DNA of 64,000 nt. Origin: a virus. Positions 6,541-37,152 of this stretch are shown piece after piece. Location: the IMG/VR virus record IMGVR_UViG_3300045988_112172; one strand, written 5' to 3'. The position numbers were made by a program, and so were the translations under genes. Every line of letters starts with the position of its first letter. Within the stretch, counting starts at the first letter, position 1. The notes under the pieces are model-generated. The model ran no database searches and was not told where the DNA came from. It was given only the letters and a program-made list of their open reading frames with translations.

Positions 6541-6579
6541 GTATGAGAAGGAGATTTTTTTAATGCTGCGGATAATTTC

Positions 6580-7074: not shown

Positions 7075-7084
7075 TTAATTTTGC

Positions 7085-8480: not shown

Positions 8481-8487
8481 TCATAAC

Positions 8488-15781: not shown

Positions 15782-18700
15782 ATGACATCAACGTGTATTA
15801 TTAAAAGAGATAATAAAAAGAAAGTTGTTTCTGTCTCTACCAGATCAGGGGACAGGTCTATGTTGTTTGATAAAATAGCATCTATTCCTCTTATGGAGAA
15901 TAGGGAACGGGCTACTACTGTTTTTAAAACCGTATTTTCTAATAAGTTCTTAAAGGCTTTTGGTGACTGGAGAAGGAATGTACCTGTTAATAAACAGGCT
16001 TATAATAAGGTAAAATCCAACATCGGCCTTATTCCGGAATCCTATAGAGAAAGGGTGCTGGATAAGGCGTCTAAGATGAGTAACCCTGTTCTTGTGTCAA
16101 AATCAGATGCACCTTATGAAATCCAAGAATCGGGCTTTGGATTCTACAGCCAAGATCTGGGTGATAATATTATGTTGGTGGATGCTATGGTTCCGTCAAG
16201 CATTTCCGTGCTGGAAGGACCTGGAATAGACGCCGGTCAGTATCTACAAGATGCTATATCTTCGGACTTCACTCCCGTATCTATGGTACAGGATAAGGAT
16301 GCTAATTATATGGTTATAAAAGACGGTCTTAAGATATTTAGCCCAGAAGAGCTACCGGAGGCAGATCCTAATCCTGTGGGTGTAACGTATCAGACCGGAG
16401 AGCCTCGTTTGTTTTTTATGAACGATCGTAGTCAATTATTTGAAGATTACGGAGAAGCTCTTCGTTCTGGTGGGAATGATATTAGAATAGGATTCTTATC
16501 CGGCACCGTTCAAGAATCTACCGTGGATGGCGTGGCAGACATTACATACAAGGCTGGAAAGTATGTTCTTAATAATCCCAAGTCTTTTATACCGGTCATG
16601 ACCGCGTCTGCTTCTACTTCTTTATCAACAAAAGGTGGTATAATTAACTACCTTATAAAGAAAGGTCTTTTGTCCGGATCTAAGATATTAGATCCTGAAA
16701 CAAGAAGCTATTATCTTACAGGAGAAGGACATACAGGACAAATTAGACTTTTCAATTCATCCTTATCCTACACCGAGCTCCGTAATCATTTTGGTTCCGA
16801 TGTTTCCATGAACGACCAAGGTATGATAACCATAAGCTCGTTGGATAATAGTAAGGTAACTATGAGGCTCGCCACCGGAGGAACGGAAAGGGTTAGCAAA
16901 GAGCAGATAAAGAACGATCTTAAGTCAGGAAGATACAATGAATTGGATGCTAAGTACGATCATTTTGATGCGCTTGTAGTTTCATTCATATTAGAAGACA
17001 ACGATCTTTATGCTGATACTAAAGCTAAGATCGTATCGGATTATAGCAGGCAGGAACGTGACCAACGAAATTCTATTGTCGAGATACTGAAAACGCTTGG
17101 CGTTAGTGTCATAGGTATGACCGATTATATAGAGAAGTACCAAACCAAATACGGGCATGAACCTTCTGCTAAGGCATTGGCGGATATTGCCAATAACGTA
17201 ATAGCAGTTGGTGAAGATGCTACTTTATCTGATTTAGTAGAAGAAACATCCCACTTCCTTGTAGAGGCATACAGAGATCAGAATGCTGTTGAGGCTGTTC
17301 TGCAAGATGTAGAAGGTACGGAAGAGTGGAACCAGTATGCAGGTCAGTATTATAATACATACGGTAAGGTATATGAAGGATCTGAGCTTGATAATGCCGT
17401 TAGGAGAGAAATTCTTGGAAAGATCCTCGCCAGGGAGATGCAGACCGGCACAGCACAGGCGCCGGTAGAGCCCACCTCCTTCCTGGGGCGCGTCCGGCAG
17501 CTTCTCTCTGGAATCGTAAGCTGGCTTAAATCAGCTTTATCAACCCAAAGACAAGATTTGAATAACGTTATTAAAAGCATTCGTGATCTTGCCATTACTG
17601 ACATAGATAAAGGATTTGACACTTCTCTGTTAAAGGATAATGACTTTACATTATACTCCCTTTCTTCTATGAACAAGAACAAGTTTCTTGAGTCTAAGAT
17701 CAGATCGCTAAGAAAAACATTAAGAGACTTACGTCAGATAAGCTCTGATAGGGCTGTAACTACGTCTATGACCCTTGCTCAGCTTAAGACCATAGAAGAT
17801 AAGATAAATAAAGTAGAGACCGAGATAGACAAGAATGAGATGGCGGCTGCCATGAACAGCATGATCTCCACAGCCGAAGCTCAGGTCAGATACTTAAGTA
17901 ATGTGGTGAACACCATCCTTCATGGTGATACCAAAGACGGTAAGCTTCATTTCAATACCAATGATCGAAAGAATGTAGATATTATCAACAATCAGGTTCT
18001 TCCGATCATGAACGATCTCCGAGGATATATCCGTAACAGAAGTACCGAATTTGATGAACGTGAAAAGCAGGATTATACAAATAGGATCAATACCGTCATT
18101 GCCGACATCAATGGTATTCAGTCTGATATTAAATCAGTACAAGACCTTGATGAAAGTACGTTGCTTGATAAGTTAATGAACGAACTTCATGTGCCGGCAG
18201 ATAAGGTAAAGAGAGTAAAAGAATTTTTCGACAAGGTTCAACACGATGTTTCTTGGATAAGTAGGTGGTTTGGTATATTAGAGCATTCTTCCAGTCCGTT
18301 CAATAACGCTCTTGGAGCTATGATTGCCAAAGACAATTACAATGCGATGGTGAATGCCCAGCCCGCCATATCCGACTTCCTGGCATATGCTAAAAAGCAT
18401 GGTTTTAACAAATCTGAATTTGAAAAACTGCTTCAGAAAGTAGACGGCAAAACTTCTAATTACCTTCGTAGTGCTCTTGATATGGCTAAATACGATCGTA
18501 ATAAGAAGCTGGCGCAGATGCGAGCGTTTGCGACTGCCATGAACATAGAGATATCAGAAGAAGAAATTGGTGATGTGGTTGACAATAACCGTAATTACGT
18601 ATTTAAAAGAGAAGTAGTTGACAAGGATGGAAATACGGTTACTGAAAACGCTAAATTCAAACCATCGTCTGATAGAGTTAATACCGATATTTTTACCATC

Positions 18701-21700
18701 GAGCAGGAAAAGATCTATACGGAGCAGATGGAAAAGTGGGATGCTGAAAATTCAGAATTGGAATTTAGTGAAAGTTATGCCACAAGAATGGAATCCATAT
18801 ACAAAAAGGCTGAAGAAGAATTAGGACATCCGGTTTCTCAAACAACCAAAGAATACCTTAATGCCTTATCCCGGCAAAAACGGATATTGAGGCAGCCTTT
18901 TATTGATAGCGGTGGTAATTTTGATGAGGTTGCCTACTATAAGAGTAGTAACTACGAAGAAGAAGGACTGCTTCGTAAACAACGTAAGGAGGCAGCTTCG
19001 GAATACATATATGTAGGAACCAGGAGAGTGGAAAAAACCGGCGACCAACTTAAGATGGCCAAAGAAATACAAGCCATAAATGAAGTTTGGAGAAAAGAAT
19101 CAAATAATGCCACTAATGCCGTATCAGAATCGTTTTTGCAAAAATTAAGAACGATTCAGAGCGAGTCTGGAGGAGAAGCTGCGCTGAAGACGCTTATGTT
19201 GGGGGGTCACCTGTCATTCAACGATCGGTTTTGGAATGACGTAGAATCGGAACAGTCGGCGCGTACCGAATCAAATAACAAGGCTTCGTATCTTAAAATG
19301 GCGCATGATATCATTAGTTCTACGACAAGTGATAGAGATGCGACTGACGTGGACTCGATTGTAAAAGATATAGAAAAAAATAAGGCCATTATCAAGGAAA
19401 TAATCGGAAACAATCGCGATGTGGCTGATATCGGAGAAATCAATGAAGCGACATTTACCTCATCTGAAAGAGATGCTTTTAGGGCCGCATCTGAAGCTAT
19501 TGAAGCCGATTACGCTATTTTGATAGATTATGCTAAGATGGTGGGTCTTGAAGATATTGATAAGTACCTTACTAAAAGCAGTAAGGCTGAAAACGAAGTA
19601 AATCAGTCTTATTTAAATGCTCTTGCTGACTCTAAGGAAATTGAATGGCAGTTTGCACAGCGTCATACTACTGCCAAAAAAGCCAAAAGGATTCAGGCTC
19701 TTAGAGATAAGTTATTCATGGCTCAAGATAACAGGTATATGTTTACCGTCTCTGAAACCAACTACTTGTCAGAAAAATTGGGAATAGATAAAAAGCTAGA
19801 TCGTAGAGATTTTAGGAATGCGGTTAGAGCCAAGATGTCTGACATATTTGGACACGATAACGGAGTAGCTGAAGTGAACGATATCGTTAATGAATTTGCC
19901 AGGAGCCAGGTCTTTTCGTACTATAAACGCATGGCGCCTACCGGATATGCGGCTATGATCGACAAAATCGGTCGAGGTGAGATAGATGTGGCGCAGATGG
20001 TTAAGGACGTACAAAACGGTACATCCACCCAAGATTATGGCATGGACATATCGTACCTGTCTTTCGATCCTGCAAGGGCATGGGTGGCTGAATCTGAAGC
20101 CGAAAATAGCGGCCGTAATCCTGATTATGTAAAAGATCATGGGTATGGTCATCGCATGCCTAAGAAAAGCCTGTATCGTGATGAATCGTATTTCAATGAC
20201 TTTGGTATCAAGTATGATGCTGACGGTAATGAAGTTGCTACTAAAAACGTAGAGCAGTGGAATATGATTCAAAAACTCAAGGAAATAAAAAGACAATCCC
20301 TTGATCTATACAAAGAGCAGAGTCCCAATTTGTATGCTATTCCACAGATATCAAAACAAGACATAGAACGTATGGAAGGATTGGGTATTAACTTCAAAAA
20401 TACGGTTCGTAATTTCGTATCAGATCTGTGCCTGGACAGAGTAGACGATTCTCTATATGGTAAGACCAGGCAAGGGGAAGTATATGATCCGGAAGACAGA
20501 CTTAGGTCTATACCTAAATACTACATATATGAGTTGGAGAACCAAGATGATGTATCTCACGATTTTGGCTACTCTTATTCGATGCTTATGATGCAGTCAT
20601 CGTTATACAACGAAAAGCAGAAATCTATAGAGCTTGCCCAAGGACTGGAGCAGATGTTGCTGAATAAGCAATTTGAAGGCGGTAAGAAAGCTGAAGCGAC
20701 TCAAGCATATCAGATGTTTAGAGACTTCTTTAACGATCATTATTATGGCATTAGGATGAACACCAAAAAACTGACGGTAAACATCGGTGGATACACAGTA
20801 GACCTTACCAGGATAATGATGGCCGTTGAAAGATTTATGTCGGTCATGAACTTGGCACTGTCTCCGTTTGTGGCAGCTACCGGCGCCCTTACCGGCCATA
20901 TCAACCTCATCATGGAATCAGCCGTAGGACAGTATATAAGCAAAGACTCCCTTAAATACGCATCGGCTGAGTTTTCACGCCTTGCGCCATCTTGTATAGC
21001 AGAAACCGGAGACATAGATAGGAAAAGCAAATTATATGTCATAGGTGAGAGAATGGGTATTTTCAACATACGAAACAGAATGTATGGTGCCGGATACAAT
21101 AGAGTGGCCAGGACCTTAATGCGTTCGCCTATGTATGCTTTTATGGAAATCCTGAACTACCCTCTTGATCCGCAGGTTATGATTGCTACTATGGACAATG
21201 TTCGTTATTACAAAGGCCGGTTCTACACGTTCCAAGATTTCAAGATGGAAAAAGAACGTAATAAAGAACAGAGTACCATAAAAAGAGAATGGAATGCATT
21301 AAAAGATCGTACTTTATGGAGTATGGTAGACGTCGTGGATGGGAAGGTGGTTGTAAAGCCAGGATCGGGTGTTACTGCCGAGGAAGTTGAAACCCAGATG
21401 GCTATAACCAGAAATCAAGTTCGTAGCTTGTCGCAGATATGTAACGGATCTTTGAATGAAGAAAACCGAACTGCCGCATCGCGCAACTGGATAGCCAGGT
21501 TCATGACCGCCCACCGAGGATGGTTGGTGCTGGCGGCTCAACGTCTGTGGAAAAGGCGTGGCTTCAATTTCCAAACAATGCAAGAAGAGGAGGGACTGTC
21601 AATTACGTTAAAGAATATGATAGCCAAAACATTTAGCTTAGCTTCCGAGTCTGGTATGAAAAACATCATAGATGCCTGGAACGAAAATAAAGACAATATG

Positions 21701-22195
21701 AATGAGGTAGAGAAAACCAATCTAAAACGTCTCAGTGTCTATGCCGGCACGTTCCTTATTATGCAAGCCGTATCTATGCTTCTTGCCGGGTGGCGTGATG
21801 ATGATGAAAACGAGGAAAGTTGGCTTACTCAATTCGGATCCTACGTCGGATTCAGAACCATAAACGAAATAGCTTCACAGATGCCATTTATTATGGAGCT
21901 TAACGTGGTTGATATCATTAACGACCCATTTGTTATGGGACGGAAACTTAAGGATCTTACCGATCTTAGGAATTATTCACTTGATAAAGTAACATCTGGT
22001 ACATACAAGGGAGAGTCTAAGTTATTTAGGCAGCTCGCCAAACAGACGTTTATCAAACAATGGTATAACATCAAGACACCAGAAGACGTGGCACGCGCCT
22101 ATAATTGGTGGCAGCAGACGAACAATAAGTCAATGATGTTCTTTATCGGCGCCACTCCTGATTCGGAAGGAGATGATGATGTTAGCTACAAATAG
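15782..22195 (+). CDS. giant virion-associated or ejected protein (2137 aa), function unknown
   Basis: Uninterrupted 6.4-kb ORF, largely helical or coiled-coil composition, with hydrophobic segments near the C-terminus. It is the second giant protein of the block. Confidence 0.85.
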   Translation: MTSTCIIKRDNKKKVVSVSTRSGDRSMLFDKIASIPLMENRERATTVFKTVFSNKFLKAFGDWRRNVPVNKQAYNKVKSNIGLIPESYRERVLDKASKMSNPVLVSKSDAPYEIQESGFGFYSQDLGDNIMLVDAMVPSSISVLEGPGIDAGQYLQDAISSDFTPVSMVQDKDANYMVIKDGLKIFSPEELPEADPNPVGVTYQTGEPRLFFMNDRSQLFEDYGEALRSGGNDIRIGFLSGTVQESTVDGVADITYKAGKYVLNNPKSFIPVMTASASTSLSTKGGIINYLIKKGLLSGSKILDPETRSYYLTGEGHTGQIRLFNSSLSYTELRNHFGSDVSMNDQGMITISSLDNSKVTMRLATGGTERVSKEQIKNDLKSGRYNELDAKYDHFDALVVSFILEDNDLYADTKAKIVSDYSRQERDQRNSIVEILKTLGVSVIGMTDYIEKYQTKYGHEPSAKALADIANNVIAVGEDATLSDLVEETSHFLVEAYRDQNAVEAVLQDVEGTEEWNQYAGQYYNTYGKVYEGSELDNAVRREILGKILAREMQTGTAQAPVEPTSFLGRVRQLLSGIVSWLKSALSTQRQDLNNVIKSIRDLAITDIDKGFDTSLLKDNDFTLYSLSSMNKNKFLESKIRSLRKTLRDLRQISSDRAVTTSMTLAQLKTIEDKINKVETEIDKNEMAAAMNSMISTAEAQVRYLSNVVNTILHGDTKDGKLHFNTNDRKNVDIINNQVLPIMNDLRGYIRNRSTEFDEREKQDYTNRINTVIADINGIQSDIKSVQDLDESTLLDKLMNELHVPADKVKRVKEFFDKVQHDVSWISRWFGILEHSSSPFNNALGAMIAKDNYNAMVNAQPAISDFLAYAKKHGFNKSEFEKLLQKVDGKTSNYLRSALDMAKYDRNKKLAQMRAFATAMNIEISEEEIGDVVDNNRNYVFKREVVDKDGNTVTENAKFKPSSDRVNTDIFTIEQEKIYTEQMEKWDAENSELEFSESYATRMESIYKKAEEELGHPVSQTTKEYLNALSRQKRILRQPFIDSGGNFDEVAYYKSSNYEEEGLLRKQRKEAASEYIYVGTRRVEKTGDQLKMAKEIQAINEVWRKESNNATNAVSESFLQKLRTIQSESGGEAALKTLMLGGHLSFNDRFWNDVESEQSARTESNNKASYLKMAHDIISSTTSDRDATDVDSIVKDIEKNKAIIKEIIGNNRDVADIGEINEATFTSSERDAFRAASEAIEADYAILIDYAKMVGLEDIDKYLTKSSKAENEVNQSYLNALADSKEIEWQFAQRHTTAKKAKRIQALRDKLFMAQDNRYMFTVSETNYLSEKLGIDKKLDRRDFRNAVRAKMSDIFGHDNGVAEVNDIVNEFARSQVFSYYKRMAPTGYAAMIDKIGRGEIDVAQMVKDVQNGTSTQDYGMDISYLSFDPARAWVAESEAENSGRNPDYVKDHGYGHRMPKKSLYRDESYFNDFGIKYDADGNEVATKNVEQWNMIQKLKEIKRQSLDLYKEQSPNLYAIPQISKQDIERMEGLGINFKNTVRNFVSDLCLDRVDDSLYGKTRQGEVYDPEDRLRSIPKYYIYELENQDDVSHDFGYSYSMLMMQSSLYNEKQKSIELAQGLEQMLLNKQFEGGKKAEATQAYQMFRDFFNDHYYGIRMNTKKLTVNIGGYTVDLTRIMMAVERFMSVMNLALSPFVAATGALTGHINLIMESAVGQYISKDSLKYASAEFSRLAPSCIAETGDIDRKSKLYVIGERMGIFNIRNRMYGAGYNRVARTLMRSPMYAFMEILNYPLDPQVMIATMDNVRYYKGRFYTFQDFKMEKERNKEQSTIKREWNALKDRTLWSMVDVVDGKVVVKPGSGVTAEEVETQMAITRNQVRSLSQICNGSLNEENRTAASRNWIARFMTAHRGWLVLAAQRLWKRRGFNFQTMQEEEGLSITLKNMIAKTFSLASESGMKNIIDAWNENKDNMNEVEKTNLKRLSVYAGTFLIMQAVSMLLAGWRDDDENEESWLTQFGSYVGFRTINEIASQMPFIMELNVVDIINDPFVMGRKLKDLTDLRNYSLDKVTSGTYKGESKLFRQLAKQTFIKQWYNIKTPEDVARAYNWWQQTNNKSMMFFIGATPDSEGDDDVSYK

Positions 22196-26604: not shown

Positions 26605-26961
26605 TCATATTATTCCTTCTAAATTTACTTTTATAGAACCATTTATGGTTTTAATGCTCCCATCTATGGTTGAAATCACATCATCTATATCATTTATAAT
26701 GCCTTCCATGTCATCAACCACCTCCTCCATATCAGTTACAGCCCGATCTGATTCCCAATATCTTTCTGAGTCTTGTAACGATTCCGGTATATTATCTCTC
26801 GCCTCCGTCTCTTCATCTAAAATCATATCAATATCATCTTTGGCTGAATTTATGTTGTGCTTTAACTCCGATAACTTTGATTTGATGTATTCAAAATCTG
26901 TTTTATACTTATTTGCGTTTTTGATAACATCTGATATTTTTTTTCTTCTCTTGTTGTTCAT
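26605..26961 (-). CDS. hypothetical acidic coiled-coil protein (118 aa)
   Basis: ORF. Confidence 0.5.
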   Translation of the reverse strand: MNNKRRKKISDVIKNANKYKTDFEYIKSKLSELKHNINSAKDDIDMILDEETEARDNIPESLQDSERYWESDRAVTDMEEVVDDMEGIINDIDDVISTIDGSIKTINGSIKVNLEGII

Positions 26962-28382
26962 GCTTTTATCCTATTATAATATTCGATAATCTTTTCTTTC
27001 CTATCTCCCGGTTTTACTGCCATATTCTCAGCCAAGAACCTAAAATACGACACCGGTATGTCCTTGAATCTAATTCCTTCATATTTTCCAAACCACATTA
27101 TTATACTGTCAAGATCGTCTTCTCTCCTACCATCTCCATTCACAGATTTAAGAGAAGCTGCCCGGCGAAGGATTTCGTCTTTGGTAATAATATCCCCCAT
27201 CCTTATATTGGATAGAAGCTGATTGCCGGCAAACATACACCAGCCCTTAGAAGGAAATTGTTCGATCGTTAAATCTTCTATCCGGCCGAAACGCCTCATG
27301 TTGTCGCAGCAATCAACTATCAGTGCCTCTTTCTTGTCAGGATGAATACGAACGCACCTGCCGAGCACCTGGTAATATGTTGAATATGAGAATGTTGGGC
27401 GCCCAAACATCACACAATCAAGTTCGGGAAAATCAAATCCGGTAGCAAGCGTTGAATAATTAAAAACCACCTTCAACTTACCTTCTTTGAAATCGGATAT
27501 GATTTGTTCTCTTTTCTTTTTGGTTGTTAGCGATGTTACGACGCCGGTTATGGCTCCCATCCTGGCATTCATGAACTCTGATATTCTATTACATGATTCG
27601 ATAGAATCCATGCAAACCAAAATGGCTTTACGCTCGTTCATAAGCTGAAGAAGACGCTTATAGATAGAGTTGTTTAAGCCATTTCGTACAATACTTTCTT
27701 TAATAGATTCGTTGGTGTATTCGGCCCCGGTACTGTTTAACATCAGAGCCGATTCATCAAAAGACCATCGTTCGTACTTAAGAGGGCACCAAAATCCCTG
27801 AGAAGTTAGCTCTTGTATTTGAGTCACATGAACTATCTTCTTAAAGAAGTTATGTTCGTCTTTCGTCAGCATATTGAGCTTGCTATAGTTCCCTTCCAGC
27901 ATGGAGCTGTAGGTCCGGAGGCGGCAGGGCGTGGCAGTGAAGCCCAGCACCTTCGCCTCTGGGAACTCGTTCATAAACTCCATAAATTCAGAACCTTCTT
28001 CAGGAGAATACCCGCTATGCACCTCATCTATCAATAACGTGTTTATCCCTATATCTTTCAACCTTGCTACGTCTTTCTTTATGCTTTTAAGTGTAGCATA
28101 GGTCATATCCGATAACTCTTTCTTTTTACATGAAGCAGAATATATAGTAGGCTCAGAACCGAATGATACGGCCTTCGCATAATTCTGCTCCAGAATCTCT
28201 TTAGATGGCTGTAATACAAGGATGGGTCTTTTTAATTCATGAGCTATCTTGCTGATTATCAAAGATTTACCCGCTGCACACGGCAAGACTTCTATGCCAG
28301 GCTTCTTAGATCTTCCTGTAAGAAACTTAAGCCCGGCATCTACTGCCTCTTTTTGGTAAGGTCTAAGTTCAAAGCCCATCAC
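26958..28382 (-). CDS. SF2 DExH-box DNA helicase (474 aa)
   Basis: LRPYQKEAVD (Q-motif and motif I region), AAGKS, LLIDEVH (DEVH motif II) and GFTATP (motif III), followed by a C-terminal helicase lobe. Confidence 0.75.
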   Translation of the reverse strand: MMGFELRPYQKEAVDAGLKFLTGRSKKPGIEVLPCAAGKSLIISKIAHELKRPILVLQPSKEILEQNYAKAVSFGSEPTIYSASCKKKELSDMTYATLKSIKKDVARLKDIGINTLLIDEVHSGYSPEEGSEFMEFMNEFPEAKVLGFTATPCRLRTYSSMLEGNYSKLNMLTKDEHNFFKKIVHVTQIQELTSQGFWCPLKYERWSFDESALMLNSTGAEYTNESIKESIVRNGLNNSIYKRLLQLMNERKAILVCMDSIESCNRISEFMNARMGAITGVVTSLTTKKKREQIISDFKEGKLKVVFNYSTLATGFDFPELDCVMFGRPTFSYSTYYQVLGRCVRIHPDKKEALIVDCCDNMRRFGRIEDLTIEQFPSKGWCMFAGNQLLSNIRMGDIITKDEILRRAASLKSVNGDGRREDDLDSIIMWFGKYEGIRFKDIPVSYFRFLAENMAVKPGDRKEKIIEYYNRIKA

Positions 28383-28749: not shown

Positions 28750-29106
28750 TTACTTGTGTTTAACATCAGTAATTAAAACATATCTTTTAACAATATCTTC
28801 AAGACTCACAGAAGAACGTATATATAGTTTTTCTTCGTACTCATATAGAGCGTACCCTTCTTTTATGTCTAATATCTTAATCACATGCTTGCCTCTTTCA
28901 AATGGATCCTTAAAGTAGCTCTTATGTTCGTATCTTTGACCGACTTTGATTTTGTCAGTTTTCTTCTTCATCTTATAACGATCTACTGCTCTACCTGTTT
29001 TTATGAAAGCTGTCGTGAGTAAGTATAATAAAACTAAATACAAAAGGATCGCTACTCCACATATTAGATCTTCTTTCATTGGACTCCTTTTAAATAGTTG
29101 AACCAT
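28750..29106 (-). CDS. hypothetical membrane protein (118 aa)
   Basis: N-terminal hydrophobic helix (AILLYLVLLYLLTTAFI). Confidence 0.45.
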   Translation of the reverse strand: MVQLFKRSPMKEDLICGVAILLYLVLLYLLTTAFIKTGRAVDRYKMKKKTDKIKVGQRYEHKSYFKDPFERGKHVIKILDIKEGYALYEYEEKLYIRSSVSLEDIVKRYVLITDVKHK

Positions 29107-29245
29107 ATATCCTCCATCTTCTCCTGAAGCTCAAACGCTTTCTTGAAATTCTCGCATCGTACAGCAACGTCTCTCATGTATGTCAAGTTTATAACTTCCG
29201 GATCTTGCCGGTATTTTGTTCTTAACTTTTGAACGTCCTCGTATT

Positions 29246-30265
29246 TCATCGTTTTATCTTTTTAGACGGATCCCAATCCGAAGAGAAAGGGCATTCGTTT
29301 TTGTTATGTAATCCAAAGTCACAATAATAACACAGTGCTGACGGGCAGGGTAGCTTGTTTTGCGAAACAGGCTGGCTTAGGGTGGCACGCCTCTTGCTAT
29401 ACCTGGTTCCTTCTGCTCCCTGGATGTATGCTTGAAATGCTTTTACACTATTATCTTCAAAATCATACATTTTAGACAAAGTGTCATTTAGCATCTCTAT
29501 AGATTTTGTTTTACGTTCCTCATCTACCTTAACCTTTTGGTACTGTCTGGTCCTGGTAAAGAAATAGATGTTCATATCTGGCAGAACTCCGCCATATCTT
29601 CTATAGATGTAAAATGAATATATAGGATGCTGTAAATTTGTTTCCAACTTCTTAGAGTCAAAAACCTTATTACCGGATTTCCAATCTATGACATAATGGT
29701 GAACTACGTTCTTGCTTTTTATAGCCAGATGAAGGTCTACCGATCCTACTATGTACACATGAGTATGAACGGTCCCATTTATATCAACAGGCTTAGGAAG
29801 ACGGTACGGCAGCACAAAATCTTCTTCGACTCCAACTATGGCGCCGTGTCTGATAAGTTTCTCGCAGGGATTAAGATCACTATCAGCTATCATAAACCTA
29901 TTGCCGTCTTTTTTGAACAGATCCACAATCCAAGCAAGAAGTTCCCCAGATTGCTTCATGGCCATCATCATATTTTCCGGTGATTGCCAAGGTATGTCCT
30001 CCTGGTAAGCATAGTAACTTATCGCTTCTCCAAGGTCTTTACCAGAAGGCTGTCTTCCGTTCTTAAAAAAGTATTCCAGTGTCTTATGGATAACCGTACC
30101 ATAAGACGTAGCTTCTTGTTTTTCCGTAGACCTTTTGCCCTCTACGTAAGTCTTATACCATTTCATTGGACAGGTAAGAAACGTATCTATCTGGGAATAA
30201 GATATGGCAAGACGTTTCACACCATTAAACTCCTTATATAGCAAATGCGTTTCCGGGACCATCAT
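29246..30265 (-). CDS. PD-(D/E)XK nuclease, Cas4/RecB-like, with a C-terminal Cys cluster (339 aa)
   Basis: VGSVDLH ... VIDWKSGN (motif II/III-like D ... D/ExK pattern) and a C-terminal CPSALCYYC ... C cluster, as seen in Cas4/AddB-type nucleases. Confidence 0.6.
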   Translation of the reverse strand: MMVPETHLLYKEFNGVKRLAISYSQIDTFLTCPMKWYKTYVEGKRSTEKQEATSYGTVIHKTLEYFFKNGRQPSGKDLGEAISYYAYQEDIPWQSPENMMMAMKQSGELLAWIVDLFKKDGNRFMIADSDLNPCEKLIRHGAIVGVEEDFVLPYRLPKPVDINGTVHTHVYIVGSVDLHLAIKSKNVVHHYVIDWKSGNKVFDSKKLETNLQHPIYSFYIYRRYGGVLPDMNIYFFTRTRQYQKVKVDEERKTKSIEMLNDTLSKMYDFEDNSVKAFQAYIQGAEGTRYSKRRATLSQPVSQNKLPCPSALCYYCDFGLHNKNECPFSSDWDPSKKIKR

Positions 30266-30609
30266 AAGTCATTGTCTTTAAATCCTTCCGGGTAATATAC
30301 GACATACTTCTTACCGTCTTCTGGTGTCATGGCAAACTGCATGTAGTTATTACGATTACGATGCTTGCCATCTAATCCTCGCTTCCAATACAGGATGCCG
30401 TCTATATCCACATAAGACCGTCCGCGTTCGGCTCTAACTACGTCCGTGTGTAGCAGATACCCGTCGGAAGACACAATCCATACTTTATCCCCTTTGTTTA
30501 AATAAGATATTCTTTTTCTTACAACAACCTTTTTCTTATTATCCAATACAAATTCCTCATCAGTCATACTCTTCATCCTCCTCTTCTTCTGTTTCAAAAT
30601 CAATTCCAT
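30262..30609 (-). CDS. hypothetical protein (115 aa)
   Basis: ORF with its stop overlapping the nuclease start. Confidence 0.55.
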   Translation of the reverse strand: MELILKQKKRRMKSMTDEEFVLDNKKKVVVRKRISYLNKGDKVWIVSSDGYLLHTDVVRAERGRSYVDIDGILYWKRGLDGKHRNRNNYMQFAMTPEDGKKYVVYYPEGFKDNDL

Positions 30610-30639
30610 ATCCCATATTCTATTAAATATATTTAAAGC

Positions 30640-31152
30640 TATTCGTATGTTTTAATACATCCCCTCGGAGACCTTTCGGTCTCCTTGGTAGATGTAAATC
30701 CCGTTAGGGATAAGTCAGGATTTCTCCTGTAAGTACCCATCGCCAATGTTATTTAAGGTTTTGAATAAGCAACACTGTTCCTGAATACCAGAACTGTTTA
30801 ATCACTTACCTTAGAGCTACAGACTTGGGCAAACATCCGTAGGTAACTATCTATTCTTAAATAACGTAGCCTTTGTTTCAAGGCTTAGGCTAATAACCCG
30901 ATCTCTTAAAGAGATGTATTAAACTTTTATAATAGAATTATATTGGTTTAATACTATTTGGGGTTATAACACTGATCATAATGATTGGTCAGTTCTTCTG
31001 GTTCTAAATCTTGTCCAAAATCCATGTTAAAAATATCGTAATTAGTAAAGCACTAAAAATCACTATTCCTGCTGGCATGAAATCTATAAATGCTGCTTTT
31101 GCTTCTTCAATTAGGCCCAAGTGTAACCTTGGGCCATTGTATTTATTTTTTG
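30640..31152 (+). ncRNA. candidate structured noncoding RNA (about 500 nt), antisense to the flanking gene block
   Basis: A 530-bp stretch with no ORF of 60 aa or more on either strand, inside an otherwise gap-free gene block. It is GC-richer than its surroundings. It has several perfect hairpins (GGAGACC-tttc-GGTCTCC, CAGGA-tttc-TCCTG, ATCTCTT-aa-AGAGAT, AGCCT ... AGGCT). It ends in a canonical plus-strand terminator (8-bp stem ggcccaag / cttgggcc at 31114-31135, followed by attgtatttattttttg). Confidence 0.4.
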
Positions 31153-32843
31153 TCATCTCCTTTTAATTTCTTTAAAGTATCTGCAATCGGAAGCTGATCA
31201 ATGACTCCCAATGCCGGAGCGACGGTCTTGACAACATTGTTAAGGAAATTACCGGTACTGTTCTGACCGCCGTCAAATACCGTGATATTTCCGAGATTAA
31301 TGTGCTCAAATGCTTTAACCTGTTCTCCAGCAATTTCTTTCCACTGATTAACCATCTTGTACTGGATGGCGATCTGAGGATTGGATTCTGCTGCTTCCAC
31401 CATAGCCTTAAATCCGTCGGCTTCTGCCATCAACGATTTTTTCTTACCTTCGGCTTCTGCCTCCAGCTTCATCTGAATAGCTTTTGCCTCCGCCTCAGCT
31501 TTTGCCAAATGTGCTGCTGCCTCTGCCTCAGCCCGGCGTTTGATCTTCTCTGCCTCAGCATCAGCTTGCAAGATAGCCTCTTCCTTCTGGGTTTCAGCCG
31601 GCACAATCTTTTCAGCCTTAAGCGCAGCCTGAACTTTCTTAGCCTTAGCTTCTTCCACTTCTTTATCAGCAAGCTCTTTTGCCGTTTTTACAGCCGCTTC
31701 CGATTTAACTTTTTCTTCTCCGGCCTTCTTTTCTGATTGAGCTTTGATAATCTGTAGTTCTGATACTGACACAGCAACCTCCTTCTGGGCATTGTTGTAT
31801 CCTATAGACGCATTTTTCTCAGCCTCAGCCTTCTTAATCTGAGCTTCAGAGTCTTGTATTGCTATAGCTGCTTCCTTGTCAGCTTCAGCCTTATTCTTTC
31901 CGACTTCTTCCATCCTTTCAGCCTCGGCTTTATTTACTTCAAGTTCTGCCTTAGATCTTACAATCGCCGATTCCTTGTCGGTTAAAGTTTTTGCGATAAC
32001 CGCAGCCCTGTCTCTATCTGCTTGAGCTACGCCGATCTGTTTCTCTTTATCGGTTAAAGCCAAGGCTATTTCTTTTTCTTTCTTCGTTTCAGCTACTATC
32101 GTTTCCTTTTCTTTTTCAGTACAAGCAATTTGAATCTCTTGTTCTTTTTTGGTATTAGCCACAGCCGTTTCTTTCTCCTTCTGCTGTACAGCAATCTTAA
32201 TAGCACCCAGCTTCTCCTGCTCTTCGATATTAGCTTGTGCTTCGTTCAGAGCCCTACTTTCAGCCTCCTTACCAAGGTTCATAATATAACCTGCTTCGTC
32301 TCTGATGTCACTGATGTTGATGTTCAGGAGGTAAAGACCTAACTTGTTAAGCTCGTTATCAATGTTCTTTCTTGCCTTATCCAAAAACTCATCCCTGTCA
32401 GAATTAAGTTTTTCGATTGTCATTTCAGCAATAATCAAACGCATCTGACCGTAAACGATGTCCGTAATAAGATTTTCAGTAGATTCGGTATCCATCCCCA
32501 AAAGTCTTTCTGCCGCATTTTGCATGATTTCGGGATTTGTACTGATAGCTACTGTAATGGTCGTAGGTACATCTACTCTAATATTCTGAGATGACAAAGC
32601 ACCGGTAAGCTTGCAATCTATTTGCATAGGCTCCATTGACAAAACATCATAGCTTTGAATAATAGGCAAGACGAATGCCGCTCCACCATGATATAATTTC
32701 GCCGACTTCTTTTCCCCACCTGTCTTACCGTAAACGACCAAGACCTGATTAGGCTTACATCTACGATACCTTGATAAGACTCCGATGATTGTCAAAATAA
32801 TCACTACAGCTAAGATAGCTGACACGTACATGATTGTTGTCAT
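31143..32843 (-). CDS. flotillin-like SPFH/band-7 domain protein (566 aa)
   Basis: N-terminal transmembrane helix, then an SPFH-like domain, then a long Ala/Glu/Lys-rich coiled-coil (EAEAEKIKRRAEAEAAAHLAKAEAEAKAIQ) characteristic of flotillin (FloT/YqiK type). Confidence 0.75.
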   Translation of the reverse strand: MTTIMYVSAILAVVIILTIIGVLSRYRRCKPNQVLVVYGKTGGEKKSAKLYHGGAAFVLPIIQSYDVLSMEPMQIDCKLTGALSSQNIRVDVPTTITVAISTNPEIMQNAAERLLGMDTESTENLITDIVYGQMRLIIAEMTIEKLNSDRDEFLDKARKNIDNELNKLGLYLLNINISDIRDEAGYIMNLGKEAESRALNEAQANIEEQEKLGAIKIAVQQKEKETAVANTKKEQEIQIACTEKEKETIVAETKKEKEIALALTDKEKQIGVAQADRDRAAVIAKTLTDKESAIVRSKAELEVNKAEAERMEEVGKNKAEADKEAAIAIQDSEAQIKKAEAEKNASIGYNNAQKEVAVSVSELQIIKAQSEKKAGEEKVKSEAAVKTAKELADKEVEEAKAKKVQAALKAEKIVPAETQKEEAILQADAEAEKIKRRAEAEAAAHLAKAEAEAKAIQMKLEAEAEGKKKSLMAEADGFKAMVEAAESNPQIAIQYKMVNQWKEIAGEQVKAFEHINLGNITVFDGGQNSTGNFLNNVVKTVAPALGVIDQLPIADTLKKLKGDDKK

Positions 32844-32874
32844 AACTTTTAAAATTTAATTGTTGATAAAAAAA

Positions 32875-33369
32875 TTAGATACTTAATTCTCCTTCTTCAT
32901 ATTTTATATTCGCCTTGTCGCCGTTTTTGTAGGTTTTTCCAGACAAGCATCTTACTCTCATTTGCTCTTGTCTTCCATTTTTCGAAATATTTACCATATA
33001 ATGATTCTTCCCTGATCTAAATACTATCTCCACTTCTCTTCCGTTTAAATCTTCCGGACATTCGTACACCATTTCTTGCTTTAACTTAAGAAGTAACTTA
33101 TATACGTAAAACAAAATGATAAAGAAAAACGACCCTATCACAACCCCTACTAAATGGGAACCCGAAAAGTACGTGGCCCAGCTATATCCAAGAATAAAAT
33201 GCGTTATACCCTTGAATGATATGATGTCCGACAAAGACATGCTTAAATCAGAAGCACTGTCAATGTCAATATCCGTATCCAGATCAGATCCTAATATCGA
33301 CAACAAAAACTGTATAACAAAAGCAAATGACGCTATTAAAGCCATGCATAAAATTATATCACTTCCCAT
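32875..33369 (-). CDS. NfeD/YqiJ-like membrane protein (164 aa), partner of flotillin
   Basis: Two or three N-terminal transmembrane helices plus a C-terminal OB-fold-like beta segment (GREVEIVFRSGKNHYMVNISKNGRQEQMRVR). It lies immediately upstream of the flotillin gene, as in bacterial yqiJK/floA operons. Confidence 0.55.
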   Translation of the reverse strand: MGSDIILCMALIASFAFVIQFLLSILGSDLDTDIDIDSASDLSMSLSDIISFKGITHFILGYSWATYFSGSHLVGVVIGSFFFIILFYVYKLLLKLKQEMVYECPEDLNGREVEIVFRSGKNHYMVNISKNGRQEQMRVRCLSGKTYKNGDKANIKYEEGELSI

Positions 33370-33610
33370 ATCCTTTTGTTATTATTTTGTAAACAAGATC
33401 AGTCATATCTTTGATGGATTCTGTATCATAATCAATAATAACGATATTGAATTTTTGTTCCACCATCACATCAAGCTCAATTCGATCAATAGAATCTAAT
33501 CCAAGTTCTTCAAACGACACATCTTCTTCATGAACTATATCTATTTCCGAATGAAGAAACTGAGTAATAATTATATCCTCTATTATCTTTCTAATTCTTA
33601 CTTTTTCCAT
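33359..33610 (-). CDS. acyl carrier protein-like small acidic protein (83 aa)
   Basis: EELGLDSIDRIELDVMVEQKF matches the ACP phosphopantetheine-attachment motif (DSL-type Ser followed by an acidic helix). Small, acidic and single-domain. Confidence 0.6.
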   Translation of the reverse strand: MEKVRIRKIIEDIIITQFLHSEIDIVHEEDVSFEELGLDSIDRIELDVMVEQKFNIVIIDYDTESIKDMTDLVYKIITKGYGK

Positions 33611-34311
33611 TGCTTTCTAATTTTGTTAAATAAATACGTTTTTATATTTTTCAATCGCTCTTTGTCTGTTTCTGAGCTTCCGGTAAACAAATAATCCGGA
33701 TTTCCTTTAGCCGGCGGCGTGGGCAATTTAGATACAGCAAACAACCAATCCATTTCCTTATTCTTCTTAGGCTCCAAATAAGGCTCGGTAGCGATCTTAA
33801 ATTTTTCAGCTATTAAGTCAAAGAGTTTTGAGTTTTTGAGGTTCATATGAACCGAGAAAGCCTGAGAAGGCGGTTTCCATATGAAGTTACATAAACTCAT
33901 TGTGTAATCTCCTGACTCTGCTATATAAGATTCTGTTACTTGAAGTATGACCTCTTTCTTAAATGAAGTATTACCCATAAACCAACACAATCTGGATTCC
34001 GCTTCTTTTCTGCTGACACCTATGTCTTTTGAATATGATTCGTACATTCCTATCATAATCTTCAACGTCTCCAGAACCTCGTCCGTCATTTCCGGTGTCT
34101 CTATATAATTCACAAAAGACGTTCCTTTGTTGGTTAATCTCATCACGCCTGATTTTAATTTCTCAACCAGACCAAGCTCTATATATCTCCCAGCATCTTC
34201 TTCCGGCATGGCTTCGATCATAACCGTGTCCTTCTGTCTTATGGCAAGAAGATTGGCAAGATCATTAGGCGTCATGTCTGATGCTGCAAGTTGTCTGAAA
34301 TTGATGTACAT
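33598..34311 (-). CDS. hypothetical protein (237 aa)
   Basis: ORF at the head of the ACP-NfeD-flotillin gene string. Confidence 0.55.
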   Translation of the reverse strand: MYINFRQLAASDMTPNDLANLLAIRQKDTVMIEAMPEEDAGRYIELGLVEKLKSGVMRLTNKGTSFVNYIETPEMTDEVLETLKIMIGMYESYSKDIGVSRKEAESRLCWFMGNTSFKKEVILQVTESYIAESGDYTMSLCNFIWKPPSQAFSVHMNLKNSKLFDLIAEKFKIATEPYLEPKKNKEMDWLFAVSKLPTPPAKGNPDYLFTGSSETDKERLKNIKTYLFNKIRKQWKK

Positions 34312-34313
34312 GC

Positions 34314-34520
34314 CTAATCAGCTTTAATAAAAATAACATCCCTATTATCCTCTCTCTCTGCGTGATTACACGGACCTGCAATCACATCCACTGCCCCGCG
34401 TGTAAAGTAATTAAATATACATCCTTCACATCCTGCATCTGGTGCCATTGGTTCCACACATTTTAATCTCACAAGTCCGGCATCAAATACTTCTCCTACT
34501 TTAAATTCCTTCTTTTCCAT
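34314..34520 (-). CDS. small Cys-rich protein (68 aa)
   Basis: CVEP ... CEGC ... C cluster. Confidence 0.4.
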   Translation of the reverse strand: MEKKEFKVGEVFDAGLVRLKCVEPMAPDAGCEGCIFNYFTRGAVDVIAGPCNHAEREDNRDVIFIKAD

Positions 34521-34535
34521 ATTTCCTCCTTGTTT

Positions 34536-35138
34536 TTAACTGTTGTACCCTTCTTTGATAATCGAATTTCTACCGGTAGACACCGACTGACGAAGATCAT
34601 CATGTACAGAATCTACCGTAGAATACTTGTTTCTGGTTGTAAAAATCACTTCCAACATCTCCTTATAATCACCTAAAGCTACTTCATATCTCGGATCTAC
34701 TTTGGCTTTTCTTTCAGCTTCGGCATTACTCTTAGCCAGCTCCCGGTCAAGAAGATCTTCTTTGATTCGGTCAGCAATCATATCAAGCTCTTTTTTGATT
34801 ACTTCGCCGGCTGCCCGAAGTTGACCTTCTACATCACCAAGCTGGTCTTGGACGGTTCCTATTTCTTTCTTTAAACGATCATATTCGTTAATCATACCCA
34901 TATCACCTGCATAGCCGGAAAAGTCCTTGATTATTCTGGTTCCTTCTTTAAGGAGCTCAATGACTCGTCTTTTACGTTCTCTGCTTATTAAAGACGGAAG
35001 ACGATAATTCATATCCGCCACCGCCTTGTCATGTATGGAGTTGATTAAAAACATCTCTCTCTCATCCCCTGCAAACTCCGTAAGAACCAAAAGGAACTTA
35101 CTTATCAGGTATTCGTTTTCTTCTACTGTTAGTCTCAT
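34536..35138 (-). CDS. coiled-coil hypothetical protein (200 aa)
   Basis: ORF with heptad-like charged repeats. Confidence 0.55.
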   Translation of the reverse strand: MRLTVEENEYLISKFLLVLTEFAGDEREMFLINSIHDKAVADMNYRLPSLISRERKRRVIELLKEGTRIIKDFSGYAGDMGMINEYDRLKKEIGTVQDQLGDVEGQLRAAGEVIKKELDMIADRIKEDLLDRELAKSNAEAERKAKVDPRYEVALGDYKEMLEVIFTTRNKYSTVDSVHDDLRQSVSTGRNSIIKEGYNS

Positions 35139-35153
35139 GGTTCTTATTTTTTT

Positions 35154-36287
35154 TTAATACAATGACTGTTCTTCTCTTGTCTCTTGTTCTTGTTCCTGAT
35201 TGTCCGTAACATCTTCCACAGTATAGAGCTTGGGCGGCGTCGGCGGCTGGTTGGGATTCACGAACTTCGTCCCTCCCTCCCCGTACATCCATCCATGCCC
35301 CGGCAGAATCTCTGGGTGGATTGTGTTAGTAAGCTCTTCCATGCTAACCTGCCTTACTTTCAGTATATGATGAAACACCAGTCCGGCTGTCCTGAATGAT
35401 GTTTTGTTTTCAGTTTTAAACCTATCAAGAGTCTGATACCAATCTTTCCCAAATATCATATACTTATCCAGCCCGTACCGACGAGGATTATGCAAACCTA
35501 TCATTAACGTACATAACTGACCCAGTGTATCAGATTGGTAAAAATCAGAAAGACGAGGAGGCTGCTCTTGTGGACTTTTTATCCTTCCTTCTATCTCTCT
35601 GTTGAATTGGGATATGATGAGGAAAAATATGTTTTTATATACTAATTTAGCCTCATTCATAACCGCCACCAAATCATCTATAGCCGACTTAGGATCTAAT
35701 CCCATTCTTTTTATTAAAGCAATATGATCGACTTTAAATATTATAAGACGTTTGTTTTTGTGCTTGTTAGCTATATGATACACAGCCGCCTCAAACTCTT
35801 TTACCGTACACGGAGCATCGATGTATATTATATTATTTCTGATTTCACCTTGAAGGATTTCAAACATCCTCATCTCTTCTACTGTATTAGAATCTTGCCT
35901 TCTTAATATTTCAGGAGCTCGCTTTTTCATATCTTGGCTCATTCTGCGAAGAAGAAGATCCTGAGGATTCATTTCGAACTCGCAATTGACAAGAAAATAA
36001 TCTTCTGCTTGCGGGTTGATCATCGGATTCATCACATTTTCCAATATCTTTTGGGCCACATACGATTTACCTACAGATGGCCGGGCTCCTATAGCAATAG
36101 CATGCTGAGGAAAAATACCTCCAAGCAAAGCCTCGTCAATATAATCGTATCCGGTTTTAGCGGGGATAAGCTCTCCCCGCCTGTATTTTAAGATATTCTC
36201 ATACGCCTCTTCCATAACCTGTTTAGAGGTCTTGAATATCCTTCTTATATCTATCCTATTTGCTATCTCCTCTTGCATTTTTGTCAC
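35154..36287 (-). CDS. DnaB-family (RecA-fold) replicative helicase-like ATPase (377 aa)
   Basis: GYDYIDEALLGG ... IAIGARPSVGKSYVAQK (DnaB C-terminal-domain entry plus Walker A), Walker B-like IIFKVDH, and no DnaB N-terminal domain. Confidence 0.6.
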   Translation of the reverse strand: MTKMQEEIANRIDIRRIFKTSKQVMEEAYENILKYRRGELIPAKTGYDYIDEALLGGIFPQHAIAIGARPSVGKSYVAQKILENVMNPMINPQAEDYFLVNCEFEMNPQDLLLRRMSQDMKKRAPEILRRQDSNTVEEMRMFEILQGEIRNNIIYIDAPCTVKEFEAAVYHIANKHKNKRLIIFKVDHIALIKRMGLDPKSAIDDLVAVMNEAKLVYKNIFFLIISQFNREIEGRIKSPQEQPPRLSDFYQSDTLGQLCTLMIGLHNPRRYGLDKYMIFGKDWYQTLDRFKTENKTSFRTAGLVFHHILKVRQVSMEELTNTIHPEILPGHGWMYGEGGTKFVNPNQPPTPPKLYTVEDVTDNQEQEQETREEQSLY

Positions 36288-36534
36288 CTTTTGTATCCGA
36301 TTTGGACCCTCTATTAGCTTTTACTGATTTATACCTAAGACCGTTCTTGGTATGAGAACAATCCTTGCCTTTCCTCCAGCCCTTGCCCTTCTTCTTGTCC
36401 GTTTCGTAGTTTTTACGACCAAGCTCCCGGCGTTTGGCTTTCTGTTCCGGTCTGGCATTTATCTCCTTGTCCTTTTTAGCCTTTTTCTTCCTGGCTTCGG
36501 GATGAGTCCTGTAGTACTCTGTTGATCTGCCCAT
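36256..36534 (-). CDS. highly basic Lys/Arg-rich small protein (92 aa), possibly DNA-binding or histone-like
   Basis: More than 35% K/R, no hydrophobic core. Confidence 0.4.
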   Translation of the reverse strand: MGRSTEYYRTHPEARKKKAKKDKEINARPEQKAKRRELGRKNYETDKKKGKGWRKGKDCSHTKNGLRYKSVKANRGSKSDTKGDKNARGDSK

Positions 36535-36585
36535 GTGCTTATATTTTTTTGATTAATAATAGCACAAAGATAGGCAATTCGCGCC

Positions 36586-37152
36586 CTATTTCAACCTGCC
36601 GTAGCTCATATCAGGATCACACCAGACATATCCGTCTTTCTCATCATGAAGATACTCAGGACATCCTCTGCATGCGCTACTTCCTGACACTATTTGATTG
36701 TTCTTATTAGGGCACTTATCTCCAGGCTTATGCCATTCTATTCTCGAACCTGATCGCTCTTTGTTCACATGACAGAACTGAAAGACTTTTCCCATCGTCT
36801 TCTCGCCGAACATACCTATATGTGTGTACTCTTCCGGTATAGCGAGAAATTCAGATAAATCCTTATACATCCTTTCCCGTTCCTCCGGCGTAGACCATAG
36901 TCTGTCAAGTTCGGCATGGACTCTTATCTTAAGAGACCTTAGTGATGGCCCCGCAAGCCGGCCTTTAGCTTTTCCCTTATTCGGCCCTGATTCATGAACA
37001 CCGACATAAGCATTGCATGGTTTACACATCATAACCATCCCTAAGCCTTTTCTGCTATATATTTTATCGGCATTGACCAACTCGGTTTCTCTTCCACAAT
37101 AAGGACAAATTTCGCCTCTTAAAACCCGTTGTTGGCGCTCATTAAGTTCCAT
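36586..37152 (-). CDS. zinc-ribbon protein (188 aa)
   Basis: CPYCG ... CKPC at the N-terminus and C ... CRGC at the C-terminus. Confidence 0.5.
   Translation of the reverse strand: MELNERQQRVLRGEICPYCGRETELVNADKIYSRKGLGMVMMCKPCNAYVGVHESGPNKGKAKGRLAGPSLRSLKIRVHAELDRLWSTPEERERMYKDLSEFLAIPEEYTHIGMFGEKTMGKVFQFCHVNKERSGSRIEWHKPGDKCPNKNNQIVSGSSACRGCPEYLHDEKDGYVWCDPDMSYGRLK

Follow-up and report, generated by a model that had tools for sequence, protein, structure and literature searches.

In Bacillus subtilis (YuaF, also named NfeD2, and FloT, encoded by yuaFG) and in Escherichia coli (YqiJ and YqiK), the gene immediately preceding a flotillin gene encodes a short, non-protease NfeD-type membrane protein with an OB-fold (oligonucleotide/oligosaccharide-binding fold) tail. 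Flotillins and partners of the NfeD type occur in a wide range of bacteria and are, to our knowledge, poorly understood, and we know of no report on them for Bacteroides. Here, a pair of this kind is described from a phage. It lies in a 64,000-nucleotide stretch of viral DNA, IMG/VR record IMGVR_UViG_3300045988_112172, which is referred to as a whole as the window. An initial annotation, made from the letters alone, had placed at 31143-34311 a co-oriented gene block for a canonical flotillin, an NfeD-like partner and an acyl carrier protein (ACP)-like protein. The flotillin and its partner were found to form a real, host-derived cassette, which is labelled in GenBank yet unexamined, and its population genetics proved to be its most interesting aspect.

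The open reading frame (ORF) call on the window returned four tightly packed minus-strand ORFs within 31143-34311, in agreement with the initial annotation. The block and its surroundings are arranged as follows.

36287-35154, minus strand: DnaB helicase, flank of the block (family searches)
34536-35138: gene of a 200-amino-acid protein upstream of the block
34311-33598, minus strand: gene of a 237-amino-acid protein (ORF call)
33610-33359, minus strand: gene of the 83-amino-acid ACP-like protein (ORF call, PF00550)
33369-32875, minus strand: gene of the 164-amino-acid NfeD-like protein (ORF call, fold)
32843-31143, minus strand: gene of the 566-amino-acid flotillin (ORF call, PF01145 and PF15975)
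31156-31004, minus strand: ORF of 50 amino acids with a single transmembrane helix (ORF call)
30266-33358, minus strand: variable cargo slot, from the ACP-like gene to the PD-(D/E)XK exonuclease gene (comparison of relatives)
30265-29246, minus strand: PD-(D/E)XK exonuclease, flank of the block (family searches)

The gene of the 237-amino-acid protein overlaps the ACP-like gene by 13 nucleotides, and the latter overlaps the NfeD-like gene by 11. The flotillin gene is separated from the NfeD-like gene by a gap of 31 nucleotides. The 50-amino-acid ORF overlaps the flotillin stop codon by 14 nucleotides.

The flotillin, its partner and their phage context

The 566-amino-acid protein is, by its domain content, a flotillin. 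Pfam matches were judged against the gathering scores, and the hidden Markov model search placed both expected domains above threshold: residues 30-211 matched PF01145 Band_7 (E=7.6e-26, 91.7 bits, cutoff 23.6) and residues 450-559 matched PF15975 Flot (E=2.1e-9, 38 bits, cutoff 27). The protein begins with a hydrophobic segment (residues 1-28), and the composition of residues 201-480 is 22% Ala, 18% Glu and 17% Lys. Its layout is therefore that of the canonical flotillin that had been proposed, with an anchor (1-28), an SPFH domain (about 29-215), an Ala/Glu/Lys-rich coiled coil (about 216-445) and a Flot C-terminal domain (about 446-545). The closest solved structures were human flotillin-2 and flotillin-1 (E=7e-23). 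FloT was the only substantial match in NCBIfam (E=5e-42), although the protein did not reach the cutoff of the FloT equivalog NF058507 (144.5 against 700 bits) and is thus not classed as a FloT equivalog.

The 164-amino-acid protein is classed as NfeD-like by its fold, not by a Pfam match. In its predicted structure, helices span residues 2-25, 52-69 and 72-100 (hydropathy segments 1-30 and 67-96), and a C-terminal OB-fold beta domain occupies about residues 105-164. There is no protease domain in this short protein. The transmembrane helices and the OB-fold tail that had been announced for the partner could thus be recovered by structure, while the sequence itself gave no match to any Pfam model, NfeD included, or to NCBIfam, even at E<=10. 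A word-indexed homologue search returned close phage relatives only. An exhaustive profile search gathered 418 cluster representatives, mostly of 155-185 amino acids. PF01957 NfeD was matched by 2 of 84 members of this family (best E=6e-5), and the family profile aligned, weakly, over the entire length of the soluble domain of YuaF from B. subtilis (2k14, E=0.04). A viral homologue with 34% identity carries the name 'NfeD-like C-terminal domain-containing protein'. Among the bacterial partners, those of Bacteroides and Phocaeicola were missed by Pfam, and the one from Planctomycetia gave sub-threshold matches to YqiJ_N (E=0.013) and NfeD (E=0.024). In the window, in the phage relatives and on Bacteroidota chromosomes, the gene lies directly upstream of the SPFH gene and is co-oriented with it. 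The label 'NfeD-like' was accepted because of this fold, architecture and gene position.

Between its first two helices the NfeD-like protein carries an acidic D-x-D-x-D-x-D loop, DLDTDIDIDSASD (DTDIDID; window 33230-33290, residues about 28-45). The loop is kept throughout the 84-member alignment, which contains the partners from Bacteroides, Phocaeicola and Planctomycetia as well, and is disordered in the model (predicted local distance difference test score, pLDDT, <50). It might be a cation-binding site.

The cassette belongs to a phage genome. Positions 29000-37000 of the window are 95.9% identical to OR575929.1, 'phage csAssE-Sib' (CrAssE-Sib), a complete genome of 151 kilobases (kb) from the human gut, whose gene products include terminase, portal and major capsid proteins as well as ring and muzzle proteins of the crAss type. 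The block sits in a replication-gene array between the DnaB helicase and the PD-(D/E)XK exonuclease, so that the phage replication setting that had been read from the window held. Relatives of the flotillin are encoded in 164 IMG/VR stretches, and by far most of its 120 best matches, which come from several public sources, are located on contigs no longer than about 155 kb. The same flanks were found in 80 IMG/VR loci and in ENA and Logan contigs. Host contamination was rejected on the grounds of the 151-kb phage genome match and the IMG/VR flanks. The gene order of the 237-amino-acid protein, ACP-like protein, NfeD-like protein, flotillin and a small ORF, with the exonuclease further downstream, was recovered in other phages as well. 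It is present in a sister lineage with a flotillin of 82% identity (L118), and it is kept in a genome with a flotillin of 99% identity that has an 85-residue coiled-coil deletion (L120). The small ORF of these two genomes is similar in size and layout to the 50-amino-acid ORF of the window, which corresponds to WOZ57344.1 in the CrAssE-Sib annotation and had no match in the bacterial flotillin loci.

In GenBank, the CrAssE-Sib genes are labelled 'flotillin family protein', 'transmembrane protein' and 'acyl carrier protein'. In the paper on this phage (Babkin et al. 2024, PMC11054128), neither 'flotillin' nor 'acyl carrier' occurs, nor does 'SPFH' or 'membrane'. Literature searches combining flotillin with crAss-like, phage-encoded, Bacteroides and phage infection returned no study of phage flotillins. 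SPFH proteins are annotated sporadically in phages: the flotillin was matched by 11 of 50,697 phage records, several of them short fragments, and a weak match to phrog_200 indicates that a related phage family exists.

Two other findings concern similar genes elsewhere. Short contigs from the human gut (L002, 873-2645), which may be viral or bacterial, carry a second, distant pair of NfeD-like and flotillin genes (35% and 39% identical). In addition, an unverified 'Bacteriophage sp.' scaffold, MT836799.1, has an NfeD-like gene at its end.

Host origin, selection and loss

In order to trace the source of the pair, a set of genomes with a single representative of each prokaryotic species was scanned. 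This yielded 29 genomes of Bacteroides, Phocaeicola and other members of the Bacteroidota, in which the best segment of the flotillin shows 62-66% identity. Wherever an upstream ORF could be recovered, which was the case in 13 Bacteroidota loci, a gene of 165-205 amino acids precedes the flotillin, so that the gene order is that of the phage. This upstream gene is a homologue of the phage 164-amino-acid gene (39% identity, E=4e-40). A homologous pair was also located on a metagenomic bacterial scaffold among housekeeping genes, with lysS, pgi and chorismate synthase nearby.

Over the whole length, the phage flotillin is 68% identical to that of Bacteroides and 66% identical to that of Phocaeicola, and the partner about 40% identical to either; between Bacteroides and Phocaeicola the values are 73% for the flotillin and 47% for the partner. 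The identities of both genes tell one story, and the pair was therefore acquired jointly from a Bacteroidaceae-like host. These comparisons establish the host origin; the acquisition would either not be recent or have been followed by faster evolution in the phage. Divergence is unevenly distributed along the flotillin. In the comparison with Bacteroides xylanisolvens, identity reaches 79% in the SPFH domain and 84% in the C-terminal domain, a conservation about equal to that between Bacteroides and Phocaeicola. In the coiled coil, which has 33 more residues in the phage, it is 55%.

The ratio of nonsynonymous to synonymous substitution rates (dN/dS) was determined within the population, by comparing the window with the distinct IMG/VR alleles, because dS between lineages was saturated for most genes. 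The flotillin gave a value of 0.031 and the NfeD-like protein 0.068, with 0.055 for the exonuclease. The upstream 200-amino-acid protein (0.002) and the 237-amino-acid protein (0.018) gave lower values, and the ACP-like protein gave 0.41. Between lineages, the dN of the flotillin (0.119) was lower than that of DnaB (0.148).

The extent of loss was evaluated in 80 IMG/VR loci fetched through the 237-amino-acid gene and thus unselected for the flotillin, of which 79 could be assessed and one was cut by a contig end. In 23 of the 79, most or all of the flotillin gene was missing, while the 237-amino-acid and ACP-like genes, and usually an intact NfeD-like ORF, were kept; these losses involve at least 8 different junctions. 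The most common junction, in 12 loci, joins 32872 to 31031; it falls directly after the NfeD-like stop codon on one side and inside the 50-amino-acid ORF on the other. A near-identical junction (32870 to 31034) was found in three loci, and eight further types were observed. The commonest class truncates the 50-amino-acid ORF and, given also the paired arrangement in the hosts, these loci are read as deletions and not as empty ancestral sites. Since the common deletion was found on several flank-sequence clusters, it must be either recurrent or spread by recombination. Six more in-frame fusions of an NfeD-like N-terminus to a flotillin C-terminus, all with different junctions, were found among the protein clusters, and two such fusions were verified in colinear contigs of 41 and 69 kb from different sequencing runs. 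The dN/dS of the NfeD-like gene was 0.083 in flotillin-less genomes and 0.067 in full genomes, both calculated against the window and so no independent test of selection after the deletion. Two truncated flotillin clusters (P0129 and P0161, ending at residues 507 and 425) may be contig-end cuts and were not used as evidence.

These population data show a cassette that is dispensable and, where present, under strong purifying selection. With close homologues in the presumed host clade, a phage genome context and the losses described, it belongs among the host-derived, non-essential auxiliary genes of phages.

Directly downstream of the flotillin and 50-amino-acid ORFs, a full-length HEARO RNA (RF02033), which we take to be the IscB omega-RNA scaffold, was detected at 30729-30967 on the minus strand (112.9 bits, gathering score 83). 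No ORF of IscB size adjoins it. The 357-nucleotide segment that holds it (30610-30966) is an indel, missing in most of the related IMG/VR genomes, and its 5' end is near the end points of several of the junctions at which the flotillin is deleted (30966-30969 and 31031-31034). The segment could represent either a solo omega-RNA or a miniature element of the IS200/IS605 type.

Length variation within the flotillin is concentrated in the coiled coil. Among the 120 best cluster representatives, flotillin length ranged from 408 to 659 amino acids. A total of 44 distinct internal in-frame deletions of 3-159 amino acids and a few insertions were recorded, nearly all within residues 200-480 (window about 31400-32240). 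Fourteen of the 44 deletions are multiples of 11 residues (11, 22, 33, 88, 99, 154), about three times the chance expectation. Tandem Repeats Finder reported one trivial match in the flotillin gene (20 nucleotides, period 9), and therefore there is no obvious array of DNA repeats behind the indels. A hendecad register would fit an assembly with a helical wall, whose height would change with the length of the coiled coil. Assembly errors may account for some of the length variants.

The ACP-like gene and the variable slot

The presence of an ACP-like gene with a phosphopantetheine motif was confirmed. The acidic 83-amino-acid protein matched PF00550 above the cutoff (E=6.7e-6, 26.7 bits against 20.8) as well as phrog_5934 'acyl carrier protein' (E=2.6e-8), and its attachment motif is GLDSID. 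It was also matched by 16 NCBIfam families, mostly ACP models, all well below their cutoffs (best 30.9 against 71 bits). Of 149 related loci, 147 retain the attachment Ser; in the other two, L203 and L204 (ACP-like gene at 5675-5938 in L203), Asp takes its place (GFDDLD). With 51 alleles in the 149 loci, the ACP-like gene evolves fastest among the block genes, and it is 37-42% identical between lineages with flotillins of 82% identity. The Ser to Asp change and the fast evolution raise the possibility of a protein that acts without the phosphopantetheine arm. The annotation of the 151-kb reference genome lists no phosphopantetheinyl transferase, acyl-ACP enzyme or lipid enzyme. The size of the 237-amino-acid protein and the overlap of its gene with the ACP-like gene had suggested an Sfp-type phosphopantetheinyl transferase; this candidate was discarded, as the fold search revealed an N-terminal MarR-like winged-helix domain, followed by a C-terminal helical domain.

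The distribution of these two genes differs from that of the cassette. In the Bacteroides xylanisolvens locus, which was examined in full, there is no ACP gene beside the NfeD-like/flotillin pair, and tblastn with the ACP-like protein against all 32 bacterial loci gave zero matches. Conversely, the deletion variants have lost the flotillin and kept the ACP-like gene. The pair of 237-amino-acid and ACP-like genes is also retained in the epsilon-like relatives L203 and L204 (237-amino-acid protein 60% identical). There, the genes of a DNA cytosine methylase and of two radical-SAM enzymes, along with two small ORFs, fill the region between the ACP-like and exonuclease genes (5941-8946). In another relative, L205, it holds two unrelated small genes. 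In the window, the same region contains the NfeD-like gene, the flotillin gene, the 50-amino-acid ORF, the HEARO RNA insert and a conserved ORF of 115 amino acids. Because the content differs among relatives, the region from the ACP-like gene to the exonuclease is, judged by this comparison, a variable cargo slot, of which the NfeD-like/flotillin pair is one filling. The ACP-like and 237-amino-acid genes form a separate pair, probably an older one, that adjoins the cassette.

Some features of the slot and its surroundings were observed in passing. The methylase and radical-SAM cargo of L203 and L204 may serve DNA modification or anti-restriction. In L204, a TnpB-type gene (OrfB_IS605 / Cas12f1-like; 592-1812) lies on the opposite strand within the replication-gene array, and CrAssE-Sib has two TnpB genes elsewhere in its genome. 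Downstream of the exonuclease, two relatives encode a ResIII/DEAD helicase with an intein-like Hom_end_hint insertion (L122, 6882-8480, 607 amino acids; L205, 8014-9837, at least 817 amino acids); the helicase of the window (26958-28382, 474 amino acids) has no such insertion. From about 22.4 to 59 kb of the window, all genes of at least 150 amino acids lie on the minus strand, with the sole exception of an ORF of 172 amino acids (49581-50099). Scans for sigma-70 promoters, intrinsic terminators and Bacteroides-type promoters gave counts at chance level, and transcription units could not be defined from them. Two giant plus-strand ORFs (205-6540, 2111 amino acids; 15782-22195, 2137 amino acids) are probably the counterparts of the large 'structural protein' genes of CrAssE-Sib.

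Possible roles in infection and known systems

We infer the role of the cassette in infection from sequence comparison. The probable explanation, with considerable room left for doubt, is that it is membrane-scaffold cargo of host origin, conditionally beneficial to the phage and distinct from the ACP pair. An ancestor of the epsilon crAss-like lineage would have captured the NfeD-like and flotillin operon from a Bacteroidaceae host, and the cassette would have been placed in the variable slot of the minus-strand replication-gene array. During infection it would be co-transcribed with the neighbouring replication genes. The flotillin would then insert its N-terminal anchor and, joined by the NfeD-like partner that co-evolved with it, form an SPFH-type oligomer at the inner membrane of the host, and this assembly would supplement or take over the flotillin microdomains of the host. 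That the SPFH and C-terminal domains have stayed so close to the host sequence points to ordinary flotillin biochemistry, possibly including co-assembly with the host flotillin. The benefit would likely concern membrane organisation, fluidity and integrity, and through them energy supply and lysis timing, over a long or persistent infection. A benefit that is conditional would explain both the tight constraint in most genomes and the clean loss in about three out of ten.

A contribution to membrane maintenance is plausible in view of two reports on B. subtilis. The membrane-remodelling protein DynA affects the handling of envelope stress and the timing of lysis (PMC8844932), and a study on YdjI and PspA describes the recruitment of PspA by an SPFH protein (PMC8581546).

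Several points weigh against this explanation. The epsilon crAss-like phages are uncultured. The frequent loss indicates that the benefit is not general, and it fits a role in competition or defence equally well; the methylase and radical-SAM cargo in the slot of relatives likewise hints at an interplay with host defence and not at housekeeping. Some of the variants with deletions or indels derive from short-read assemblies, and errors of assembly could be among them. Finally, the NfeD assignment draws on the fold and on weak profile evidence, with no significant sequence match of this protein to a hidden Markov model.

Among the alternatives, superinfection exclusion or competition between phages is judged unlikely. 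The flotillin/NfeD complex would reorganise the inner membrane or sequester a membrane component that other phages need for DNA entry, and so shield the infected or carrier-state cell from competitors. The presence/absence polymorphism and the indel-rich coiled coil are typical of conflict genes, the methylase and radical-SAM genes of relatives occupy the same slot, and persistent or temperate-like lifestyles have been proposed for the group of CrAssE-Sib (PMC11054128). However, none of the eight block proteins matched a PADLOC defence model (E<=0.01), the SPFH and C-terminal domains are so close to those of the host flotillin that no retooling is visible, and the dN/dS of the flotillin leaves no sign of diversifying selection outside the indels. 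The defence or exclusion module suggested by the initial annotation thus obtained no support from PADLOC and is retained only as a rival of the scaffold-cargo explanation.

A related and rather improbable reading is that of a counter-defence module. The scaffold would protect the inner membrane, by stabilising or repairing it, from membrane-disrupting effectors of abortive infection or from lysis that sets in too early. The coiled-coil indels, enriched for multiples of 11, would tune the size of a cage, and balancing selection among Bacteroides strains that differ in their defences would keep the polymorphism. If this were the case, a host membrane-scaffold protein would represent a new class of phage anti-defence factor.

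It is distinctly improbable that the cassette acts by controlling a protease, with the flotillin and NfeD proteins caging a host membrane protease in the manner of HflK/C and FtsH, thereby altering the turnover of phage or host regulators and tuning the choice between lysis and persistence. HflK/C modulates the FtsH-dependent degradation of lambda CII, and FloT of B. subtilis has been linked to FtsH. Membership in the SPFH family agrees with such a role, as do the conserved repressor and anti-repressor genes that the CrAssE-Sib paper describes for Epsilonunoviruses (PMC11054128). Nevertheless, the protein is a flotillin and not an HflK/C orthologue, and its sole substantial NCBIfam match is FloT; its 164-amino-acid partner has no protease domain, and the locus showed no link to FtsH.

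The initial annotation had favoured a single operon of flotillin, NfeD and ACP that remodels lipids or the membrane for a replication or assembly compartment. Although the genes are adjacent, co-oriented and overlapping inside a replication-gene block, this is very improbable and largely refuted by the comparative data. The ACP gene and the cassette each occur without the other, in the slot exchange of L203 and L204, in the flotillin-less variants and in the bacterial pairs. The constraint on the ACP gene is much weaker (0.41 against 0.03), and its attachment Ser is lost in two relatives. The product of the fourth gene is a winged-helix protein, and the genome has no annotated lipid enzyme. 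A dispensable cassette is also a poor fit with a core replication compartment. The block corrects an over-reading, in that tight packing of phage genes does not equal one functional operon. As to a functionless, decaying passenger gene, or host contamination or misassembly, the frequent loss and the many truncated or fused forms in assemblies would agree with it, but this scarcely credible reading is refuted by the selection and synteny data: dN/dS values of 0.03-0.07 near that of the exonuclease, retention across lineages whose flotillins are 18% apart, and the same flanks in 80 IMG/VR loci and in ENA and Logan contigs.

A very abundant, uncultured lineage of gut phages has copied the pair of its host and keeps it under strong constraint, from which it follows that the flotillin function evidently matters in infection. 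The flotillin-plus and flotillin-minus genomes, together with the length variants of the coiled coil, provide a natural allelic series for asking what a bacterial flotillin does.

Among known systems, the Bacteroides/Phocaeicola operon (B. xylanisolvens XB1A, locus L016, 5471-7641) resembles the phage pair in gene order, in protein sizes (165-177 followed by about 545-566 amino acids) and in domain layout. The phage copy differs from it in its position in a replication-gene array, in the 50-amino-acid transmembrane ORF that follows and in its variable presence and length. With the YuaF-type partner of B. subtilis it shares the fold, since that of the 164-amino-acid protein matches YuaF (2k14); it differs from yuaFG and YqiJ-YqiK in that the phage proteins miss the FloT equivalog cutoff and the Pfam NfeD and YqiJ models. 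Vibrio phage KIT04 (LC487410.1), a cultured T5-like phage, also encodes a 'flotillin family protein' with a Band_7 domain, 29% identical over residues 26-309. KIT04 and its host are unrelated to those considered here, the Flot C-terminal domain was not detected, and there is no recognisable NfeD-like partner, the upstream ORF having 82 amino acids and no family match. Finally, the SPFH domain and the first part of the coiled coil of the phage protein align to flotillin-2 of the human flotillin-1/2 cage (PDB 9bq2, 9l3g; E=7e-23), although the phage coiled coil is much longer and varies in length between variants. By analogy with the flotillin and HflK/C-FtsH cages, a cage-like membrane oligomer would be the expected assembly of the phage flotillin.

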